Shown one piece after another: positions 1-9,801 of a DNA stretch of 64,000 nucleotides. This DNA is from a virus, in the IMG/VR virus record IMGVR_UViG_3300008954_000002, positions 64,001-128,000 of that record; one strand, 5' to 3'. Below the pieces are notes generated by a model that was not told the origin of the DNA, searched no databases, and saw nothing but the letters and a program-made list of their open reading frames with translations. Position 1 is the stretch's first letter. Every line of letters begins with the position of its first letter. Position numbers and translations under genes: made by a program.

Positions 1-44
1 CACTGGATCCGAACTTGATACAAATAGTTCTACTTCAGAAGAGG

Positions 45-323
45 ATGTCGTCATTAATCAGTGAGCAAGAATCAGTGAGTAAAGAGCCCGAACTACTTCT
101 TATTACTTGTGCAACATGCTCACGCGCCATATATACAGCTAAGCTAGAGAGTGGTCTTCGAACTAGACCCAATACTAGCTATGGCTTATGCAATGATTGT
201 GGCCACGAGTTTTGCCTAGACTGCTTAAACACAAAAATGAGCTGCAGTGACGACAAATGGCCTGTCGCCTATAGTGGCTTTAAATGCAAGGGATGCTATG
301 AGTCAAGCGAGAACGTACCTTGA
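45..323 (+). CDS. Small Cys-rich (RING/Zn-finger-like) protein
   Basis: CxxC pairs (CATC, CNDCGHEFCLDC, CKGC); ATG at 45 after GAAGAGG. Confidence 0.6.
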   Translation: MSSLISEQESVSKEPELLLITCATCSRAIYTAKLESGLRTRPNTSYGLCNDCGHEFCLDCLNTKMSCSDDKWPVAYSGFKCKGCYESSENVP

Positions 324-528
324 GTTAGAAGAAAAACACAAAACTAAGCAAGCTGACCTACAGCTTGCTCAACTACAAGCCCACTTCTGGAAGAATGCTT
401 TCTATGAACTTACAAATAGAATAGCAAGACTAGTTCCTGAAGCTAATATCGATCCCACATCCTATCTCCTAGAATGCGAAGCACACTTAAATAAGGAGAT
501 ACAGAGTGTCAAACTTAAAAAACCCTAG
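298..528 (+). CDS. Hypothetical coiled-coil protein
   Basis: ORF MSQARTY... overlaps both neighbours; ATG 298 chosen as the likely start. Confidence 0.55.
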   Translation: MSQARTYLELEEKHKTKQADLQLAQLQAHFWKNAFYELTNRIARLVPEANIDPTSYLLECEAHLNKEIQSVKLKKP

Positions 529-1819
529 CAATTTCGTACATTTACATGTCCACTATGAAACGAGTCTCCTAGATGGCATTAATAGAATAGATACACTGCC
601 TGAACATGTTAAAAGCCTTGGCCAGACCGCCCTTTCACAGACGGACCACGGTAATGTATCCGGTTCATATCGGTTCTTTAAGGCTTGCAACAAGGCTGGC
701 ATCAAGCCAATCATTGGGATGGAGGCCTACTATTCTGTCGAGGACAGGACTGTACGCGAAGCAGACGACCTAGAGCAGGCTTACTATCATTTAATCTTGA
801 TAGCTCTTAACAATGAAGGGCTACATAACCTGTTTAAGTTATCCTCTTATGCTTACACAACTGGATTATATAGAAAACCAAGACTCGATGACGATCTATT
901 AGGACAATATAATAAAGGTATCTGCGCCACATCAGCATGCCTTGGAAGCAGGGCATCCCAACTGATTCTTAGAGGCAGAAACCAAGAGGCCGAGAAGCTA
1001 ATACACCATCATGCAGCCTTGTTCTCGAATAGGTTCTTAATTGAACTTCAGCTACATGACGACCCAGAACAACAACTCGTCAATAGAGTACTTATGGATA
1101 TTGCCAAGCGCAACGATTACCCAATGGTACTCTCTAATGATGGACACTATACTCATGAAGCAGACAAGTATCTTCATGAAGCTGCTCTTTGCATGCAAAC
1201 CCGTTCAGTACTAAGTGATGAAAAGCGGTTTACATTCGGAGAGATAGATGTTCATGTAGCACATCATGATTGGATGTGGCATCGCGCAGACATGCAGGGT
1301 ATTCCCTATGAGAGTATTACAAATACTGTTGCTGTAGCAGATATGGTTGATGCAGATTCTTACTTTGAAGACAGAATTAATCGCTATCCAAAGTTTCAAG
1401 GACTGCCTCCAGAGCTTACTTCTGACAATGCCCTTGAAAGAGTAGCTAAAGAAGGTCTCTACAATCGTTTTGGAGAGATGCCTCCAACAGAGTATAGAGA
1501 GCGTCTTGATTCAGAGCTAAAAGCTATCAAGATCATGGGCTTCTCAGATTACATGTTAATAGTTTGGGAGCTTTTAAATGGTGCGAGGAGTGAAGGTGTC
1601 TTAACCGGACCAGGCCGTGGATCGGCAGCAGGCTCCTTAGTTGCATATGCCCTGAGGATAACAGAAGTAGATCCTATTGAGTATGGGCTTATCTTCGAGC
1701 GTTTTTTAAATAAAGGTCGATCTGCAACCCCAAAACTCTTCACTAGGCAAATGCTTGACCAGATCTTAGACAAAGACGAAAACAGTACCTTTGAAGAAAT
1801 AGAAGAGGCAGTAGGATAA
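506..1819 (+). CDS. dnaE: DNA polymerase III alpha, fragment 1 (PHP domain plus N-terminal palm up to FERFLN)
   Basis: FVHLHVH..SLLDG, TDHG, GMEAY, YHLIL, SACL, NDGHY (PHP); GPGRGSAAGSLVAYAL, FERFLN; AGGAG before the GTG start. Confidence 0.95.
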   Translation: MSNLKNPSNFVHLHVHYETSLLDGINRIDTLPEHVKSLGQTALSQTDHGNVSGSYRFFKACNKAGIKPIIGMEAYYSVEDRTVREADDLEQAYYHLILIALNNEGLHNLFKLSSYAYTTGLYRKPRLDDDLLGQYNKGICATSACLGSRASQLILRGRNQEAEKLIHHHAALFSNRFLIELQLHDDPEQQLVNRVLMDIAKRNDYPMVLSNDGHYTHEADKYLHEAALCMQTRSVLSDEKRFTFGEIDVHVAHHDWMWHRADMQGIPYESITNTVAVADMVDADSYFEDRINRYPKFQGLPPELTSDNALERVAKEGLYNRFGEMPPTEYRERLDSELKAIKIMGFSDYMLIVWELLNGARSEGVLTGPGRGSAAGSLVAYALRITEVDPIEYGLIFERFLNKGRSATPKLFTRQMLDQILDKDENSTFEEIEEAVG

Positions 1820-1834
1820 CCCTACTGCCTCTTT
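1803..1834. terminator. Hairpin/intrinsic terminator between convergent genes
   Basis: Perfect 13-bp inverted repeat AAGAGGCAGTAGG / CCTACTGCCTCTT with the dnaE-1 stop codon in the loop. Confidence 0.7.
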
Positions 1835-1858
1835 AGTCCTATAATAGCTATTTCTTAA

Positions 1859-2185
1859 CTAGAATAGTATTGAATCAATTACACGCCAGATACTAACACC
1901 ATCGCTTACAAGCCATAGCCTACCGCCATTTGCTGCTATAGCCTCAGAAGCAAATACTAGTCCCGATGCTTTTACAGTACCATTTACATCAAGCTTTTGT
2001 GCTGGTGCATTAGTGCCTATACCTGCGCGATCATTGGTGCCGTCAGAATATATGTTGTAAGCATCATTGTCAGTTTCTACTCTGAAATCAAAGTCTTCAC
2101 CAGGCTCATTGAATACTTCGTTCTTGCCTCCTTTGCGGAGATACTTCCTAGAACTATGGCTACTTGATAAAAAGCTTTTAGGCGT
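1859..2185 (-). CDS. Tail-fibre-like protein without a canonical start (ACG start or +1 frameshift from the upstream ORF)
   Basis: Hand-translated 108-codon open frame containing FNEPGEDFDFRVETD...DRAGIGTNAPAQKLDVNG, a repeat typical of phage fibres. Confidence 0.6.
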   Translation of the reverse strand, partial: TPKSFLSSSHSSRKYLRKGGKNEVFNEPGEDFDFRVETDNDAYNIYSDGTNDRAGIGTNAPAQKLDVNGTVKASGLVFASEAIAANGGRLWLVSDGVSIWRVIDSILF

Positions 2186-2186
2186 T

Positions 2187-2555
2187 TTAAAACACCGTAA
2201 TTGTTAGAGCAGCAGCTGTACTTGATACTATCTCAATAGAATGTATTTCTAAACCTGTATTACCATACTCATATACAGTGTCTCCGGTCTCTTCAAAAGT
2301 GGGGAAAGCACTGCCCGCTTGCCAAGCTTGCACAGTTTCATCAGGCTTGCTCTGGTTTCTCTTTACAACTCGTGCACAGTTGTTTATTCTAAAAGTAATA
2401 GTATCAGTAGAAGCGTCTGTCATTATCTTCATATTCTGAGCGGGTCTACCTAATACATCAAACATATCGATCTTGTCCCCCGCAGCTACAGCAGTAATAG
2501 CTGTGACCCTTGCAGGACTTAAAACATTACTTGGTACCTTAGTGTAAGTTGCCAA
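2187..2555 (-). CDS. Hypothetical, probably virion-associated, protein
   Basis: TTG start with a strong AAGGAGG Shine-Dalgarno; beta-rich, Thr/Ala/Val-rich. Confidence 0.75.
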   Translation of the reverse strand: MATYTKVPSNVLSPARVTAITAVAAGDKIDMFDVLGRPAQNMKIMTDASTDTITFRINNCARVVKRNQSKPDETVQAWQAGSAFPTFEETGDTVYEYGNTGLEIHSIEIVSSTAAALTITVF

Positions 2556-2572
2556 GGCTACCTCCTTTTGCT

Positions 2573-4162
2573 ATGGAGCTAAAATTGAAAGAGAATATTA
2601 ATAATTATTATATTCCTGAACGAGTATCAGAAGTCGATAAAGACTTCCTTACTTTTGAGGAAGATATGATATCTACATCTGATGTGCAGATGATACTTGA
2701 CATATTATCTAACAAAACCCATCTAGTAGGCAAGCTACCCAACCCTCATAATAGTATACTTCTCTATCTTACTGGTATAACAAATACTTTTGATAAAACC
2801 AAGGCACGATCAGATACAATAGATGGTAGTCCCCCCGATGTGGATGTGGATCTAGCCGCATTAGAAAGAGATAAAGTTATTCAGTGGATAGTTAATCACT
2901 GGGGAAGAGAACAAGTAGCTAATATTATTACTCATGGTACTTTTAAACCTAAGTCTCTTGCAAGAGCATACTATAGAGTTACTGAAGGTGACGGTGGCGA
3001 TCTAGCTAAGATACTTAAGATGATTCCGCCAGCAAAGTATGGCAAGGAAGCAACACTTGAAGAGATAGTAGAACTACACCCAGAATTATCTGAAGAAGAA
3101 TGCTATACAGAGTTCTATACTGCTGCACAGAAACTAGAGAATATGATCTCTAATTTTGGGATACATGCAGGTGGGTTAATAATATCTGACTTTCCTATCT
3201 CTGATGTAGTACCTATATGGAAGAATAGTAAAGCTGACGCTATTACTCAGTATGACAAGAATGAAACCGAAGAGCTCGGTCTGCTGAAGTTCGACCTACT
3301 TTCTATTGATACATTATCTATTATTAAAGATACATTGGGCCTGATAAAAAGAGATCTAGATATCGATATAGAACCATATACTATTCCAGATGGTGATACA
3401 AAAGCATACAAGATGATGAATGCTGGGCTACTTACTGGTGTCTTTCAAATGGAGACCTCTGGCAACGCAAAGAGATTATTCGAAGGTATCCAGCCACAAT
3501 CTATTAAAGAGCTATCTGATATTAGCGCCCTTAACAGACCTGGACCAGCTCAAGCTGGGCTTGATCGTACGTATATGGATAACAAGAAGAGAGGGTCGCC
3601 GCCCTCAGACCTACCAGAACCAGTTGCAGAGATTCTCAAGGGTACATACTGGACGCTTGTTTACCAAGAGCAAATAATGAATCTATGCTCTAAGCTCGCA
3701 GGCTTTACACTCCAAGAGAGTGACGATATTAGACGCGCATTAGGCAAAAAGAAGAAAGAGATCTTAGACTCTTATGAAAAGCAATTTGTTGAAGGCTGTA
3801 AAGAAACTGGTCTTGAAGAACTCTATGCTAAAAATTTATGGGAAGAACTACTAGGCTTTGCTGATTACTGTTTAGCCGGCGATACTCAAGTGCAAACAAG
3901 CGAAGGCTATGTGGCCATTGAAGATCTTATTAACAGGAACGACAGTCCCACCGTCTTATCTGTTGATAATGAAGGCAATCTCATCTATCAAGATATAGTA
4001 CAAAAACACAATAATGGCATTATGGGTCTATATGAATATACATTAGAAGACAACACTAGAGTTAAATGCACAAAGAATCATAAGTTTATGACTGCTACTG
4101 GTTCTATGATTGAAATAGACTCTGCATATAGATCTGAAGTAGACTTGTTAATAAAGGAATAA
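2573..4162 (+). CDS. dnaE: DNA polymerase III alpha, fragment 2 (catalytic palm/thumb/fingers) fused to split intein N-half
   Basis: PPDVDVD, HAGGLII, GLLKFDLL, GVFQME, ALNRPGP, VYQEQIM, DDIRRALGKKK, FADY|CLAG; ATG 2573 is the probable start but has no SD. Confidence 0.95.
   Translation: MELKLKENINNYYIPERVSEVDKDFLTFEEDMISTSDVQMILDILSNKTHLVGKLPNPHNSILLYLTGITNTFDKTKARSDTIDGSPPDVDVDLAALERDKVIQWIVNHWGREQVANIITHGTFKPKSLARAYYRVTEGDGGDLAKILKMIPPAKYGKEATLEEIVELHPELSEEECYTEFYTAAQKLENMISNFGIHAGGLIISDFPISDVVPIWKNSKADAITQYDKNETEELGLLKFDLLSIDTLSIIKDTLGLIKRDLDIDIEPYTIPDGDTKAYKMMNAGLLTGVFQMETSGNAKRLFEGIQPQSIKELSDISALNRPGPAQAGLDRTYMDNKKRGSPPSDLPEPVAEILKGTYWTLVYQEQIMNLCSKLAGFTLQESDDIRRALGKKKKEILDSYEKQFVEGCKETGLEELYAKNLWEELLGFADYCLAGDTQVQTSEGYVAIEDLINRNDSPTVLSVDNEGNLIYQDIVQKHNNGIMGLYEYTLEDNTRVKCTKNHKFMTATGSMIEIDSAYRSEVDLLIKE
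3869..4159 (+). other. Split intein N-fragment (97 aa), cyanobacterial DnaE-intein-like
   Basis: CLAGDTQVQT (block A), SVDNEGNL, YEYTLED, CTKNHKFMT (block B TxxH); ends at the stop codon. Confidence 0.95.
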
Positions 4163-4164
4163 TT

Positions 4165-4488
4165 ATGCCCGGCGAAGCACAGAGATTAAGAGCTGCTCTT
4201 TCAGCTGCTTATAATAATAACCCTGCCCAAACCACTGTTAATGTAAATCCTGATAATGTAAATGTAAAACTATATGATCTTACAAGTCAGATAGATGGCG
4301 TTACTGCCACGTTTACATTCTCTCCTACTCCAAGTGCCTTAAGTCCTATTGAGATAATTCACGATGGGCTTACCCTTAGAGAAGGAGCCGCCAACGACTA
4401 CACCTTAAGTGGTGTTACATCTATAACTCTTACGTATATACCTGTTGTAGGCTCTTCTATGCAGGCTAGGTACGCAGAACAGTCATAA
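4165..4488 (+). CDS. Small virion/fibre accessory-like protein
   Basis: QIDGVTATFTF..IIHDGL..GAANDYTLSG beta domain of a kind seen in phage tail proteins; AAGGA SD. Confidence 0.65.
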   Translation: MPGEAQRLRAALSAAYNNNPAQTTVNVNPDNVNVKLYDLTSQIDGVTATFTFSPTPSALSPIEIIHDGLTLREGAANDYTLSGVTSITLTYIPVVGSSMQARYAEQS

Positions 4489-4702
4489 CTATCAATTCTC
4501 CTTGTCAAGCTATATAAAAGCATAGTCACTTGGTTTTAAGGCTTCAGATCTATAAGATGAAGTCACATCTAAGGATATGAAAACCACGCTGATTCTTGCT
4601 GACACTCACCCCAACTCTTATGGGGTACTTGTATCTAAAGATGTATTCTTCTCAAAAGAAAATAATAATACATAATTACTTAATTACAAGGAGTAAATAA
4701 TT

Positions 4703-6436
4703 ATGGCTAAAACTCAAATTCGATCTGAAGCGATTAAACTTCAGACCGCTAAAAGATTAATTGGTGGTGTAGACGGCAGCGCAGACGCTGAAGAAGTAGC
4801 AGTTGATAGTACATACTTCGATCTTGCTGCTGTCAGCGGTACAGATACTCTTCAAATTGTAGCTGAAGGCTTCCAAGACCTAGTTGGTGCAATGTTAACT
4901 GATAATACTGAAAATGGTATTGCAGTAACTTATCAAGATACAGATGGAACTATTGATTTTGATGTCAACGATCCCATAATTTCTCTAACTGGAGCTGTTG
5001 CAGGCTCAGCGACAATGACCAATCTGGGTAATGTATCTATTACCACTACTGCTACATCTGATCCAACACTAACCCTCGATGGCGACTGTAGTGGTTCGGC
5101 AACCTTTACAGACTTAGGTAATGCTACTCTCACTGTAATAGTAGCAGATAACTCTCACTACCTAGCATCTAGCTATATTTCAGATGCAACCTCTGAAGCT
5201 ACAGCAAATGTAATTGTTAAGCGAGATGCTAGTGGTGACTTTGCAGCCAATAACTTATCAGTAGCTGGTATTACAGCAAATGGTAATATTTCAGCAGTTG
5301 ACATGACCTTATCTGGCGATCTCTTGGTTAATGGTACCCAGACTTTTATGGATACAACCAGATGGCTAGTTAAAGATAAGGACATGGTCCTAGGTGTTGC
5401 TGGTGGTGAACGTCTTGCAGTAAGTCGTACAAACGCCTCTCCATCTGTTTACTCACAAACTGCTCATGGCTACTCCACTAATGATTATATCTACATATGG
5501 GGTGATAGTGGTTCTGTTTCTGATGGTGTTCATCAGGTCACTTCTATCGACGCCGATAGCTTCAGCATTGCTGTAGACACAAGCGGAGACACTGGTTCTA
5601 AAAGCTCCAACATGTCCCTTAGTGCAGTAACAGAAGCTACTGCCAACGGCGGTGGGCTCCATGTTCCTGGTACTAGCTTGCACAAGCTAATTTACAATAG
5701 CACTAATGGCTGGGACTCTACTGATGATCTTAACATTGCCACCGGAAAGGTGTTTAAAATTGCTGGAAGTGAAGTACTTTCTGCAAGCAACCTTGACAAT
5801 GCTGTCAAGGTAGAAAACGCAAACTGGGATAGTACTACGAACAAACAACTAACAGTTACAAATGGTGGTACTGGACTACAAGCTGTTACACAGGGCGATA
5901 TTTTGTATGCTAGTGCTACAAATACCATTAGTGCTGCAGGGCCAGGATCTGAATCTAATGTACAAGCTTGGGATGCTGCTTTGGATGACTTTAGTGGTCT
6001 TATCCAAACCCCAAACAAGATCCCCTACTTTGACAGTGCTACCACTATGGATATGTTTGACTTCAAAGATGAAGATAACATGTCTTCTAACTCTGATGCG
6101 GCATTAGCCTCACAACAGTCTATCAAGGCATATGCTGATAATAGTGGTGGCGCAGCCTCCCTATTTGCACATAGTACTGTTGGTGCTGGTGGCGTAGCCT
6201 CTGGGGACACAACTGCACACGGCGCAACCATGGTTGCTGGCCTAGATGCCAGTGGCATTTCTAATGTGGGTGGCGATGAAACAAAGTATATGGTCTTTCT
6301 AGACGGTATGCTACAAGACAAAGGTGCAAACGATGACTTTAGTCATGTCTATGACAACGATAACGCGCTTACCATAAAATGGCAAAAAACACTTTATGAA
6401 GGACAAACAATTGTCATTCGTGGCGCTACAGTCTAA
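4703..6436 (+). CDS. Tail fibre / virion appendage protein
   Basis: Gly/Thr/Asp/Ser-rich with repeats (ISLTGAVAGSAT/LTLDGDCSGSAT), IVKRDASG, GDLLVNGT, GGTG, TAHGY module; AAGGAG SD. Confidence 0.8.
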   Translation: MAKTQIRSEAIKLQTAKRLIGGVDGSADAEEVAVDSTYFDLAAVSGTDTLQIVAEGFQDLVGAMLTDNTENGIAVTYQDTDGTIDFDVNDPIISLTGAVAGSATMTNLGNVSITTTATSDPTLTLDGDCSGSATFTDLGNATLTVIVADNSHYLASSYISDATSEATANVIVKRDASGDFAANNLSVAGITANGNISAVDMTLSGDLLVNGTQTFMDTTRWLVKDKDMVLGVAGGERLAVSRTNASPSVYSQTAHGYSTNDYIYIWGDSGSVSDGVHQVTSIDADSFSIAVDTSGDTGSKSSNMSLSAVTEATANGGGLHVPGTSLHKLIYNSTNGWDSTDDLNIATGKVFKIAGSEVLSASNLDNAVKVENANWDSTTNKQLTVTNGGTGLQAVTQGDILYASATNTISAAGPGSESNVQAWDAALDDFSGLIQTPNKIPYFDSATTMDMFDFKDEDNMSSNSDAALASQQSIKAYADNSGGAASLFAHSTVGAGGVASGDTTAHGATMVAGLDASGISNVGGDETKYMVFLDGMLQDKGANDDFSHVYDNDNALTIKWQKTLYEGQTIVIRGATV

Positions 6437-6481
6437 ACAACACAATATATAGACATTAAGTATCTTTCTAAGGTACAACCT

Positions 6482-6513
6482 AGTGCGGGGGGAGAACCCC
6501 CCGCACTTTCTTT
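6482..6513 (+). terminator. Rho-independent terminator
   Basis: 11-bp stem AGTGCGGGGGG-AGAA-CCCCCCGCACT followed by TTCTTT. Confidence 0.85.
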
Positions 6514-6526
6514 ATATGGAGAAAAT

Positions 6527-6952
6527 ATGATTAGAAAGGTAAAACAATTCTTTTATAGAACAAGGCTAATAATAAGACTCTTGTATCGATCAAGTATATG
6601 GAAGGAAGCGAATCTTATAAGAGACAATATGGAACTAAGAACTGGCGGTGGTAACTATAAAAAAGACTACCGACGATATTGTAATATACTCCGTGGTCGT
6701 ATAAGAACTGATAATGTGGGATGGGATGACATAGTAGGAGTCACTACTCTTTCTATTGTGGGAACAGCAGCAGAAGATAACGAACTACTTAAACAGCAAG
6801 CTCTTGAACTAGCATCTATCTCTACAGACCTATATGTTATGCTTTGTGAAAGAAAAGTAGATCACTCTGGCATTCGTGAAGAGGGTGAGGAAATTAAAAG
6901 CGAACACAGCACTCTAGTATTGATAGATACCAATACGGAAACAGAGCTATAA
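6527..6952 (+). CDS. Hypothetical protein
   Basis: ORF with GGAG SD. Confidence 0.7.
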   Translation: MIRKVKQFFYRTRLIIRLLYRSSIWKEANLIRDNMELRTGGGNYKKDYRRYCNILRGRIRTDNVGWDDIVGVTTLSIVGTAAEDNELLKQQALELASISTDLYVMLCERKVDHSGIREEGEEIKSEHSTLVLIDTNTETEL

Positions 6953-7129
6953 ATGTTCCTACAGCCTAAAGATATAACCTCAGTCATATTCTTGCTTTCA
7001 TCTACAATGTGGCTAGGAACTTTTATTCTTGCTATACTATCAGACAGCTCATTCTCAGAATGTTTTAAATTGCTGAGCCTATCAATATTATGTGGATATG
7101 TTTCTTACTATTTCCACTTCAACATGTAA
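6953..7129 (+). CDS. Small two-TM membrane protein (58 aa), not in the ORF track
   Basis: MFLQPKDITSVIFLLSSTMWLGTFILAIL...LLSLSILCGYVSYYFHFNM; starts immediately after the previous stop. Confidence 0.55.
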   Translation: MFLQPKDITSVIFLLSSTMWLGTFILAILSDSSFSECFKLLSLSILCGYVSYYFHFNM

Positions 7130-7149
7130 CAAGAGGATCTATCGACTAC

Positions 7150-7506
7150 ATGTACGAGTCACAAGAAAAAGAAGATAAAGATTATATAGCTGAAGTTGAA
7201 TACTGCCTTGATGGTATTATCCCAGAAGAGGTTATGCTTGTTGATTTACTAAGAAAACTAAAAATCCAAGCAGAAGATATTGAAGACTACTCTTTATCGT
7301 TTTCACCTGGAGAAAGAACAGAAGATTATGATTACTTTGTAATCACTTGCTCAAAGACTACTGCTTCACAGAGCGACTCTCACGAGTCTTCTCCCTACGG
7401 AGTAAGCCTGTCGCTTTATCAAGATAGAGTTTCAGAACTCACTTCATCTGAGCAAGACGATACTACTTTAGGAAATCAGCTACAGCTTATATTCTCCAAC
7501 GATTAA
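7150..7506 (+). CDS. Hypothetical acidic protein
   Basis: ATG 7150 after AAGAGGA; Asp/Glu-rich. Confidence 0.65.
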   Translation: MYESQEKEDKDYIAEVEYCLDGIIPEEVMLVDLLRKLKIQAEDIEDYSLSFSPGERTEDYDYFVITCSKTTASQSDSHESSPYGVSLSLYQDRVSELTSSEQDDTTLGNQLQLIFSND

Positions 7507-7520
7507 CCGTAAGGATATAT

Positions 7521-7625
7521 ATGAAGATTAAATCCCGAGAATACCTCGGGCTTGCACCAGTGTATGATATTGGTCTGCCCGACCATCACAATTTTGTTAT
7601 TCAAGGCGGTTTAGTTGCGGCAAAT
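7521..7625 (+). other. Split intein C-fragment (35 aa)
   Basis: MKIKSREYLGLAPVYDIGLPDHHNFVIQGGLVAAN followed by Cys+1 (CFN). Confidence 0.95.
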
Positions 7626-8714
7626 TGTTTCAATGCAAGCCATTCTGTCTCGTATTCAAAGCTTACTTACATATCCGCCTATTTGAAAGCAAACTATCCG
7701 GCACAATTCTTCTGTGCACTTATGTCTGTGCGCTCCAAGTCTTTGCAACCTAAGCTCTGGGCTAATAAAGCTCCTGAGTATATGCAGGAGGCAGGCCGTC
7801 TTGGTGTAACTATACATCCACCCTCTATTAATGGTTCTGAACTTGAATTCTCAGTAAAGAGCAATGATATCTACTTTGGACTCAATGCTATTAGAGACGT
7901 TGGTGTTGCTGCAGCTAGAGCCATTATAAAAGCAAGAGGTAGCCAGCCATATAAAGACATATACGACTTTCTACATAGGGTAAACCTTAGGAAAGCGACT
8001 ACTAAGACTTTTATAAGCCTTGTAAAGGCAGGCGCTTTTGACAAGTTGGGATATAGCCGCCCATCTCTTCTTGAACATACAGCCGCTTTATATGCTTATG
8101 TAAAAGATATTGTAGAATATGAACAAAGAAAGTTAGATATAGTCGCTAGAGACGAAGAAAATAGAAAGAAAACACTTCTCTTAGATAGAAAAAAAGAACT
8201 AAACAAACTATTACGAAAAGAGAAAAGAGAACCCACCTCCAAAGAAGAGGAGTTCTTAATTAGTATCAAAGGTCTTAGACGGTTACCCGCTCTTAAACCC
8301 AAGGCTTTTCCTGAACCACCAGAAGTAAAAAGAGCTAGCACTGTTGAACTCTCATTAGAAGAGATCATGGAGCAGGCACACTACATAGGTTGCTATGTAG
8401 GAGTACATCCAGTTATGCTCATCAACAACAACGCAGAGCGTCTGTGCAACCTATATACAGGTCAACATGCTAATGTCTGCGGAGTACTTAACAATGTCAA
8501 AGAAATCACAACTAGAAAGGGAAGACAAATGGCTTTCCTAGAAATAGATGATTCCACTGACATAGCTGAGGTAGTAGTTTTCCCAGCTGTATGGCGCAAG
8601 ACTAATCAGTCTTTAGTCACGCAGGGAAAGCTAGTAGAGTTAAGAGTTAAGGTTGAGCAAGAAGAACCAACCCTTAAGCTAATGGCTACTTCAGTCAAAA
8701 TATACGAGGAATAG
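7521..8714 (+). CDS. dnaE: Split intein C-half fused to DNA polymerase III alpha fragment 3 (fingers, HhH, OB-fold)
   Basis: ...AAN|CFNASHSVSY, AYLKANYP, PPSINGS, IYFGLNAIRDVG, LVKAGAFD, TRKGRQMAFLEIDD..EVVVFP. Confidence 0.95.
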   Translation: MKIKSREYLGLAPVYDIGLPDHHNFVIQGGLVAANCFNASHSVSYSKLTYISAYLKANYPAQFFCALMSVRSKSLQPKLWANKAPEYMQEAGRLGVTIHPPSINGSELEFSVKSNDIYFGLNAIRDVGVAAARAIIKARGSQPYKDIYDFLHRVNLRKATTKTFISLVKAGAFDKLGYSRPSLLEHTAALYAYVKDIVEYEQRKLDIVARDEENRKKTLLLDRKKELNKLLRKEKREPTSKEEEFLISIKGLRRLPALKPKAFPEPPEVKRASTVELSLEEIMEQAHYIGCYVGVHPVMLINNNAERLCNLYTGQHANVCGVLNNVKEITTRKGRQMAFLEIDDSTDIAEVVVFPAVWRKTNQSLVTQGKLVELRVKVEQEEPTLKLMATSVKIYEE

Positions 8715-8718
8715 TTAT

Positions 8719-9801
8719 ATGAGTAGATGGCAACCAGAAGAAGAACACTTACTTAGGCTTTTGCTACCTACAAATAGCCATACCGAGATAGCAGTAGAAT
8801 TTGAAAGGCGCTTCCAAAAGATGCTGCCTGGATTTACCTCGCTAAGATCTTCAGAAGCAATACGCAAGAAGTGTAACCGCGAAGAACTAACAGCTGATTC
8901 TATAGTAGGATACAGCGATCCCTATAAAGATCGCTGGGAATATATTAAGAGTCTTGGAAACGAGTACAAGCTAGACGCTGAGGAACTAACAGTAGGAATA
9001 GTAGACGATGTAGATAGAAAGATACTCACACTATCTGATCTACACTTTCCGTTTGCCCTAGAGGACCATATACATAGGGCACTACTCGATCATTCAGACG
9101 CAGATGTTGTCGTGCTGAATGGCGATCTACTAGACGGATATATATTCTCTACCTTTGGCAGAGCCAAACGAGTAGCCGCACTTAAAGAGTACATAGCTGT
9201 ATTTGAACTAGTTCGTTATATTTCAGACAACTTCCCACATGTTATTATTACAAGTGGAAATCATGATGTAAGGCCTGCAAGAGCACTTAGCAGATCAGAC
9301 TTCAACAAAGAAGCTACTCAAGTACTTAGACCAGACCTATTAGCTAGAATAGCTAATGGCGAAATGCTTGATGAATATGGCGAGATAGTAGAACTAGTCG
9401 GCATGGATAATGTTACATATCAAAAATATGACTCTTGGTATGTACGAGTAGGCAAAACAATATTCTGCCATCCATCTGCATGGCGGGGTAGCTATCCTGG
9501 AGGCACTGTAACTAAACTATGCGATTACTTTACCAACAGAATGGGCAGTGAATCTTTTGACTCTATAGTCGTGGGGCACACACACCGGATCTATATGGGT
9601 ATTGTTGGCAACAAACTACTAATAGAGCAGGGTGCTATGTGCGCTCGACAGCCCTACCAGCATAAAGATGATCTCAGATTCACACATGCCATGAACGGCT
9701 ATGCAGTAATATATCAAGACGCAGACGGCAATACAGACTTCAACCTAAGCGGCCCAATATATATTGGAAGCCAATTACCACCTAAAAAGGAAATACTATA
9801 A
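8719..9801 (+). CDS. Calcineurin-like metallophosphoesterase with an N-terminal HTH-like region
   Basis: SDLH, GDLLD, GNHD, H, GHTH motifs. Confidence 0.85.
   Translation: MSRWQPEEEHLLRLLLPTNSHTEIAVEFERRFQKMLPGFTSLRSSEAIRKKCNREELTADSIVGYSDPYKDRWEYIKSLGNEYKLDAEELTVGIVDDVDRKILTLSDLHFPFALEDHIHRALLDHSDADVVVLNGDLLDGYIFSTFGRAKRVAALKEYIAVFELVRYISDNFPHVIITSGNHDVRPARALSRSDFNKEATQVLRPDLLARIANGEMLDEYGEIVELVGMDNVTYQKYDSWYVRVGKTIFCHPSAWRGSYPGGTVTKLCDYFTNRMGSESFDSIVVGHTHRIYMGIVGNKLLIEQGAMCARQPYQHKDDLRFTHAMNGYAVIYQDADGNTDFNLSGPIYIGSQLPPKKEIL

Follow-up and report, generated by a model that had tools for sequence, protein, structure and literature searches.

Essential replication genes that are found in pieces have been described in several settings. 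In cyanobacteria, DnaE is encoded as DnaE-n and DnaE-c, which carry the two halves of the Ssp/Npu split intein (Wu et al. 1998; Caspi et al. 2003, cited in PMC2677866). Dassa et al. (2009, PMC2677866) described fractured genes of environmental phage-like DNA, replication genes and DnaE among them, in which the break carries a split intein. Phage genes can also be in pieces with no intein at all, as in T4-like gp43, which is divided into 43A and 43B, and in Aeh1 nrdA, which is split by mobE (Petrov, Karam; Edgell; summarized in PMC2677866). It is an open question, raised for cyanobacterial dnaE (PMC2677866), by what route an essential enzyme of one chain could become split with no lethal stage in between. 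Here we analyze a 64,000-nucleotide stretch of phage DNA (the window), bases 64001-128000 of the 161,098-bp IMG/VR record IMGVR_UViG_3300008954_000002, in which the alpha subunit of DNA polymerase III (DnaE) is distributed over three plus-strand open reading frames (ORFs). We call them fragments 1, 2 and 3, with break 1 between the first two and break 2 between the last two. The record has direct terminal repeats, is rated 100% complete, and is matched in marine and seawater metagenomes; no RNA data set was listed among those that contain the stretch.

Searches with Pfam and with PHROG 405, a full-length phage DnaE profile, identify the three ORFs as collinear pieces of one DnaE (Table 1). Read across the three ORFs, the domain order of PHP, Asp-triad palm, fingers, HhH and OB fold is the canonical one of C-family DnaE. 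In phmmer alignments, fragment 1 covers E. coli alpha 5-414, and residues 86-432 of fragment 2 (counted from its ATG) cover E. coli alpha 398-754. The collinearity that the first-pass annotation had read from the motifs also holds in alignments against PDB entries, where the pieces match alpha of E. coli, Taq and Mycobacterium tuberculosis (Mtb). As that annotation had described, other genes and hairpins separate the pieces in both gaps, and fragments 1 and 3 have Shine-Dalgarno (SD) sequences of their own, AAGGAG and TAAGGA, each 7 bases before the start codon. The motifs are likewise intact: all nine metal ligands of the PHP domain in fragment 1 are invariant in 32 relatives, and D89, D91, D93, K239 and D241 of fragment 2 are invariant, with D89, D91 and D241 making up the Asp triad, to which K239 adds a further catalytic residue. 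Searches of the complete 161-kb genome gave neither PolA nor PolB nor another PF07733 match, which leaves the three-piece DnaE as its only recognizable DNA polymerase. The description as one DnaE in three pieces therefore stood, and only the notion that fragment 2 simply continues fragment 1 had to be given up, as these two pieces overlap.

We consider it probable that the locus encodes a three-chain replicase. The intein halves of fragments 2 and 3 would associate and splice in trans at GFADY/CFNASHS (the slash marks the splice point), yielding a chain of ~794 residues with head, palm, thumb, fingers, HhH and OB fold. Fragment 1 would never be covalently joined to this chain and would instead dock through a large interface, thereby recreating the fold of single-chain DnaE. 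The split would go back to one event in the common ancestor of a large clade of uncultured phages of ~150-190 kb, and would have involved the insertion of foreign genes together with a duplication of ~100 codons of the N-terminal palm, which would be why the two genes overlap in homology. The copy in fragment 1 would have kept the GS loop that binds the deoxynucleoside triphosphate (dNTP) and the arginine of the FERF motif while losing the catalytic aspartates. Fragment 2 would have kept the Asp triad, and its upstream copy would have turned into a clade-specific head that might serve mainly as a docking element. Because the copies diverged complementarily, two chains probably contribute to the active site. 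Varied cargo genes would since then have landed in the gap at break 1. On the most specific form of this proposal, an obligate heterodimeric C-family replicase long fixed in a marine phage clade, with the GS loop and FERF arginine coming from fragment 1, the aspartates from the spliced chain, a duplicated palm segment as docking module and a gap that receives cargo, our judgment is evenly balanced.

Judged by its sequence, break 2 is a genuine split intein, as the first-pass annotation had proposed, and it is of the cyanobacterial DnaE type. Both halves match the solved Npu and Ssp DnaE inteins in phmmer searches, the N-terminal half (IntN) with an E-value of 2e-18 (to 4lx3/4qfq/2keq) and the C-terminal half (IntC) with 5.5e-8, and Cys1, the TKNH block and the N/C junction are present. 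The junctions read GFADY/CLAGDT in fragment 2 and GLVAAN/CFNASHS in fragment 3, placing the insertion at ADY/CFN, the same site as in the Npu and Ssp DnaE inteins. In L004, a relative without the intein, a single 807-aa gene reads GFADYCFNKAHS contiguously at this site, and the relative L012 is contiguous there as well (FANYGFNKSHS). Stand-alone homologues of fragment 3 form at least 310 clusters at an E-value of 1e-20 or better, and 117 of the 120 best of these homologues start with the same intein half and an [SH]N/CFN junction. Fragments 2 and 3 are probably joined by trans-splicing, since the halves are homologous to proven inteins, retain their catalytic residues and are under purifying selection. 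Identity between IntN and its Npu counterpart is ~35-40%, a rough reading of the alignment rather than a computed value, and a recent transfer is therefore not indicated.

The overlap between fragments 1 and 2 centers on the active site. The stretch GPGRGSAAGS...FERFLN.GR is (nearly) invariant in the clade and is the most conserved part of fragment 1. We take its GS motif to be the Pol-beta-type motif at G363-S364 of E. coli alpha and the FERF arginine to be R390, which hold the incoming dNTP. Alignment of fragment 1 to contiguous DnaE does not end there and runs across the PDFDVDF strand: following FERFLNKGR, the tail of fragment 1 has the consensus GR-x-A-x-P-L-I-F, conserved in 120 relatives, which aligns with ERVSMPDFDVDF of contiguous DnaEs. 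Fragment 2 in turn begins with a head in which R17, E29, N57, N60, S61, L64, G68 and G85 are invariant in 31 sequences. In a search of 1.84 billion representatives, this head was found only at the N-terminus of ~800-aa proteins or fragments thereof (65 matches). In an AlphaFold2 model of fragment 2 with a predicted local distance difference test score (pLDDT) of 88, residue 27/28 aligns to E. coli alpha 326/328, and the model covers alpha 326/328-754 and the equivalent points in Taq and Mtb alpha (Z 12-19). A profile of the head compared with the same segment of 115 unsplit DnaEs gives an hhalign P of 0.0056 over 72 collinear columns, with N60-S61 matched to the GS motif and GIT to the conserved IT, in a register that agrees with the structural alignment within about one residue. 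Profile and model together suggest that the head is probably, though not with certainty, a diverged second copy of the N-terminal palm. If the head is homologous, fragment 2 probably starts at the PHP/palm boundary, and ~100 palm residues are present in both genes. The two copies have degenerated complementarily: fragment 1 keeps GS and FERF, and the head has NS for GS and is without GRGS and the FERF helix, while D89, D91 and D241 occur in fragment 2 only. Extensions of tblastn alignments to residue 7-23 of fragment 2 were set aside as unreliable, as composition-adjusted BLASTP begins only at residue 86.

Structure prediction is consistent with a non-covalent association of these two pieces. 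Three model runs that combined the extein part of fragment 2 with fragment 1 gave interface scores (ipSAE) of 0.93, 0.92 and 0.93, shared at least 91% of their contacts and had a partner pLDDT of at least 89; the best of three controls scored 0.00. Of 80 solved complexes, 58 reached the score mark, as did 2 of 110 mismatched pairs. The predicted interface comprises residues 363-374 and 393-421 of fragment 1 and residues 24-64 (in the head) and 79-95 of fragment 2, in addition to the PHP-palm contacts expected from single-chain DnaE. Within it, T82 and I83 of fragment 2 touch the invariant N292 and P409 of fragment 1. When fragment 1 is modeled alone, its pLDDT falls below 50 at 370-374 and 397-412, which fits with these segments taking on order only once the partner is bound. 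As far as prediction goes, intein homology and complex model thus support the arrangement that the first-pass annotation had envisaged, a trans-spliced chain of fragments 2 and 3 with fragment 1 bound non-covalently.

Several observations weigh against this proposal. Since the two chains are halves of a fold that has been solved as one chain, the complex score may reflect the memory that the predictor has of single-chain DnaE, and it speaks for likeness rather than proving binding. The complex model yields contacts without coordinates and does not distinguish which GS helix faces the aspartates. The second palm copy is graded as probable and not as certain, because the weaker sequence tests are not significant: the head compared with the clade's own fragment 1 gives an hhalign P of 0.06, the C-terminal part of fragment 1 against the head a BLASTP E-value of 7.9, and a head-only hidden Markov model against 123 DnaE and fragment 1 proteins a best E-value of 1.6, and head-only BLASTP against contiguous phage DnaE finds nothing significant. 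Fragment 2 has no clear SD at its start. In addition, the lone model of fragment 2 confidently places this fragment's own head in the canonical position, and N60-S61 and R79 of the head are (nearly) invariant, so that a self-sufficient polymerase of fragments 2 and 3 is possible.

That alternative is the most serious one, and we judge it unlikely. It holds that the spliced chain is a self-contained polymerase whose head is a complete, diverged palm with NS in place of GS, and that fragment 1 is a separate proofreader, a detachable PHP subunit with 3'-5' exonuclease activity that uses its remnant of the palm for docking only. The lone model of fragment 2, which folds as a complete core over alpha 326/328-754, the conserved N60, S61 and R79, and the nine invariant PHP metal ligands would all suit such a division of labor. 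However, docking alone would not require the exact GS loop and FERF arginine of bona fide DnaEs, and fragment 1 is nowhere more conserved than in these elements; the head, in turn, has lost GRGS and the FERF helix. Both points favor an active site shared between fragment 1 and the spliced chain.

Break 1 is, from comparisons of protein sequences, old and common to a large clade of uncultured phages of ~150-190 kb. The best 120 homologues of fragment 1 of near its length have 389-497 aa (with one of 762 aa that carries an intein) and 61-78% identity, and many of them sit on contigs of 100-187 kb; stand-alone homologues of 415-465 aa show this range of identity. Longer proteins that match closely (63-67% identity) are fragment 1 carrying a LAGLIDADG intein, and the nearest unsplit DnaEs reach at most 44% identity to fragment 1. 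Because the closest homologues are stand-alone or intein-bearing versions of fragment 1 and unsplit proteins are no closer than this, every close relative found is split. The layout, which was also sought in relatives and is present in an independent assembly from another sample (L003) and across the clade, is a feature of hundreds of metagenomic phages rather than an oddity of one genome. Relatives were obtained from protein collections only: megablast of bases 1-9000 against the phage collection and a back-translated pattern scan of viral_contigs gave no match, and every tblastn match in the phage collection was below 60% identity.

The genes in the gap at break 1 differ among six relatives. 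The window has a minus-strand 122-aa gene and a start-less fibre-like frame; L003 has minus-strand genes of 322 and 122 aa, L004 and L005 each have a single minus-strand gene of 123 aa, and the contig carrying protein P0120 has four minus-strand genes and L012 six. L006 has one plus-strand gene of 81 aa, and in L007 no fragment 2 follows within the 6 kb read downstream.

The first-pass annotation had seen no intein, intron or endonuclease at break 1, and none was found with Pfam, Rfam and PHROG searches. Pfam detects no intein domain in the tail or the head, neither contains conserved intein motifs A or B, and Rfam intron models find nothing in bases 1-9000 of the window at E-values up to 1. 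The same models, applied to L012 as a positive control, find two group I introns (5262-6300 and 7232-8370 of that contig; 86.8 and 67.6 bits), each with a LAGLIDADG ORF. In L012, fragment 1 and the minus-strand genes are followed by a head exon ending in PPD, intron 1, an exon from IDIDF onwards, intron 2 and a last exon; the first intron interrupts the catalytic motif, after PPD and before IDIDF, and the second sits inside RRAMG/KKK, so that this DnaE consists of four pieces of three kinds. The fragment 1 homologues P0110 and P0331-P0335 (~760-817 aa) contain a full LAGLIDADG/Hint intein. In this clade, dnaE is a hot spot for mobile elements. Because break 1 lies only a few residues from the L012 intron site, insertion of a mobile element or of cargo at the active-site codons is a plausible origin, although the duplication would point to unequal or illegitimate recombination rather than clean homing.

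A further alternative is that the two sides of break 1 are covalently joined after all, either through trans-splicing of RNA or through a split intein, degenerate or atypical, that would consist of the 32-aa tail plus the 85-aa head. Removing tail and head would leave a canonical FERFLNKGR-SPPDVDVD junction, a serine follows directly after the head, and a site beside the catalytic aspartates is a typical target of mobile elements, as the L012 intron after PPD illustrates. We nevertheless regard covalent healing as very improbable. The residue before Ser86 is the invariant Gly85 and not an asparagine; the head is predicted to be all-helical (pLDDT 82-94) and not a HINT beta fold; block A and B motifs are missing; and the sole Pfam intein match, at 454-522 of the frame read from a TTG start, is that of break 2. 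The absence of an Rfam intron, with L012 as control, and the opposite-strand genes in the gap argue in the same direction. The sequence NPHN/S in the head was considered as an intein C-terminus and rejected, because it aligns at the position of the GS motif and fragment 1 stays canonical DnaE past the matching point.

The layout also withstands scrutiny of the assembly. Logan contigs of sequencing run X1, possibly the source sample of the record, cover positions 400-4737 and 4910-8800 with zero differences and thus run across break 1 and, on its right-hand side, across most of break 2. No single Logan contig crosses 4737-4910, a short hole of very high depth inside the 577-aa gene. In four marine runs, contig depth rises from ~8 to 350-960 at 4883-4965 (within ORF 4703-6436), where Logan assemblies break; apparently, far more abundant sequences in those samples also contain the N-terminal part of the fibre-like protein. 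L003 has the same three-gene layout at 72-78% protein identity. A misassembly, which the first-pass annotation had named as a finding that would overturn its interpretation, is not borne out by the X1 contigs or by L003.

Sequence divergence between the window and L003 is likewise at odds with decay. Synonymous divergence (pS) is near saturation (0.49-0.82) and nonsynonymous divergence (pN) stays at 0.09-0.30 in every part: 0.20 in the head (pS 0.59), 0.22 in the tail, 0.30 in IntN, 0.09 in IntC and 0.14-0.16 in the cores, with a pS of 0.49-0.65 for the two intein halves. All pieces are under purifying selection. As the first-pass annotation had surmised, the gene is not decaying: pN is far below pS throughout, and the intact pieces are conserved across the clade. 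The locus looks functional, and its two breaks differ in mechanism. That the layout is an artefact of chimeric assembly, or a product of decay in a phage that has become defective, is extremely unlikely, for while the record does come from a metagenome and Logan assemblies do break within the cassette, this is countered by the difference-free contigs, the same layout in independent samples, the hundreds of clusters that hold the pieces as intact ORFs, the low pN, and a complete genome with terminal repeats and no other polymerase.

The polymerase region is part of a replication module. In relatives, RecA-like genes lie upstream. Downstream (3') of the dnaE pieces are genes for an Mre11-like phosphoesterase, a Cas4-like nuclease, an IMPDH-like dehydrogenase and a DnaG-DnaB primase-helicase, and beyond these comes a structural module on the minus strand. 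The 360-aa Mre11-like metallophosphoesterase (8719-9801) stands directly after the last DnaE piece, and it adjoins that piece in every relative read so far along (L003, L004, L005, L012 and the P0120 contig); possibly it is a constant partner of the polymerase module. Searches of the genome gave no beta-clamp domain.

Table 1. Features of the three-piece dnaE locus (positions in the window; aa, amino acids)
Feature	Position	Strand	Description
Fragment 1	506..1819	+	437 aa; PHP domain and N-terminal palm; GTG start; AAGGAG SD; Pfam PHP 2.3e-42, PF07733 positions 2-102; PHROG 405 positions 39-443
dNTP-binding segment	1607..1720	+	fragment 1 residues 368-405, GPGRGSAAGS...FERFLNKGR
Fragment 1 tail	1721..1819	+	residues 406-437; degenerate catalytic strand without aspartates, then variable acidic end
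Hairpin	1803..1833		14-bp, terminator-like; spans fragment 1 stop codon; convergent junction with minus-strand genes
Start-less frame	1859..2203	-	114 codons, no ATG/GTG/TTG; one unit of a fibre-like GIGT..P..L.V.G repeat protein
122-aa gene	2187..2555	-	strong AAGGAGG SD; 75% identity in L003, 24% in L004
Fragment 2	2573-4162	+	ATG at 2573; PF07733 100-259, finger domain, weak intein N-half match; PHROG 405 441-790
Fragment 2 head	2573..2827	+	85 aa before SPPDVDVD; conserved, clade-specific, predicted helical N-terminal module
Fragment 2 polymerase core	2828..3868	+	catalytic strand SPPDVDVD, rest of palm, thumb, fingers, to N-extein end GFADY
IntN	3869..4162	+	97 aa and stop; Cys1 of CLAGDT..., block B TKNH
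Gap 2 cargo	4165-7506	+	five ORFs: 107, 577 (fibre-like, Ser/Thr/Gly-rich), 141, 58 and 138 aa
Gap 2 hairpin terminator	6482-6507		strong
Fragment 3	7521-8714	+	Pfam HHH_6 8e-27 and OB fold 1.6e-7; PHROG 405 790-1065
IntC	7521..7625	+	35 aa ending ...VAAN; own TAAGGA SD
Fragment 3 C-extein	7626..8714	+	starts with Cys+1 (CFNASHS); end of fingers, HhH, OB fold

Within the gap at break 1, the start-less frame begins 16 bases before the stop of the 122-aa gene in another reading frame; its L003 counterpart has 322 aa. Possible explanations are a truncated pseudogene, an unusual start and reading by frameshift. The 122-aa gene and fragment 2 start back to back, 17 bases apart (2555-2573), and the promoter of each must therefore lie inside the coding sequence of the other; the AAGGAGG near this junction serves the minus-strand gene. 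The 122-aa protein belongs to no family found, and an Atlas look-up returned only viral hypothetical proteins, at scores up to 0.89. Like the 107-, 141-, 58- and 138-aa ORFs of gap 2, it has no usable match in Pfam (E-values up to 5) or PHROGs. Searches of the gap 2 ORFs at the same settings detected no GIY-YIG, HNH, LAGLIDADG or Vsr family, though an unrecognized family is possible, and L003 has a similar cassette.

The C-termini of fragment 1 homologues form classes. Many end in [LI]PF after A-D-x-x-x, which could be a peptide-docking or clamp-type motif, the version in the window is acidic, and many others end in Cys/His-rich runs that resemble metal sites (e.g. C.H.H and C.HKHKC.C). Contigs of runs X3 and X5, from two studies, match the window up to position 2612 and continue with 85 bases unlike it: a co-occurring strain differs sharply inside the head-coding region of fragment 2.

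If the split passed through a partial duplication, both halves would have been complete around the cut from the start, and overlapping, complementarily degenerated copies are the footprint expected of such a route. The hundreds of relatives constitute a natural experiment on which DnaE active-site residues could be supplied in trans. The cyanobacterial-type split-intein allele of DnaE is widespread in these phages, which bears on the origin and spread of this intein, and the clade is a pool of new DnaE-type split inteins and possibly of a non-covalent docking pair.

The closest counterpart of break 2 is the cyanobacterial Ssp/Npu intein, which shares with it the host protein DnaE, the insertion site (..Y/CFN.SH), halves of ~97 and 35 aa, Cys1, the T..H block, a terminal Asn, Cys+1 and the lack of a penultimate His. 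The locus described here differs in that it belongs to a phage, in that the halves lie 3.3 kb apart on one strand and not at distant loci, and in that the extein has a second, intein-free split. The loci of Dassa et al. (2009) resemble ours in having other DNA between the intein halves at one locus. Their three DnaE loci, however, have other insertion points and new intein types, and their gaps hold a free-standing GIY-YIG or Vsr-like endonuclease, whereas the five ORFs here include no recognizable endonuclease. The mechanism at break 2 is already known in kind.

For break 1, our literature search turned up neither a description of the clade nor one of a DnaE divided at its active site without an intein, which is not proof of absence. 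DnaE annotated as two intein-free ORFs, as at break 1, is present in gp83 and gp84 of the Mycobacterium phages MrMiyagi/Fowlmouth and in gp20 and gp18 of the Rossellomorea phage phiT1; their breaks, however, lie ~570-600 residues in, and both ORFs of a pair are on one strand, next to or overlapping each other, with no opposite-strand genes between them. As in gp43A/B and Aeh1 nrdA, an essential replication enzyme is made from two genes with inserted DNA between them, and the products of those genes are thought to associate non-covalently. The present case differs from gp43 and nrdA in concerning a C-family polymerase and not a B-family polymerase or ribonucleotide reductase, in having no endonuclease that we could find in the gap, in being split within the palm beside the catalytic aspartates, and in the overlap of its genes by what is probably a duplicated and diverged segment of ~100 residues, for which we found no description in the literature. 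Break 1 belongs with these intein-free genes in pieces, and the individual principles are already known.

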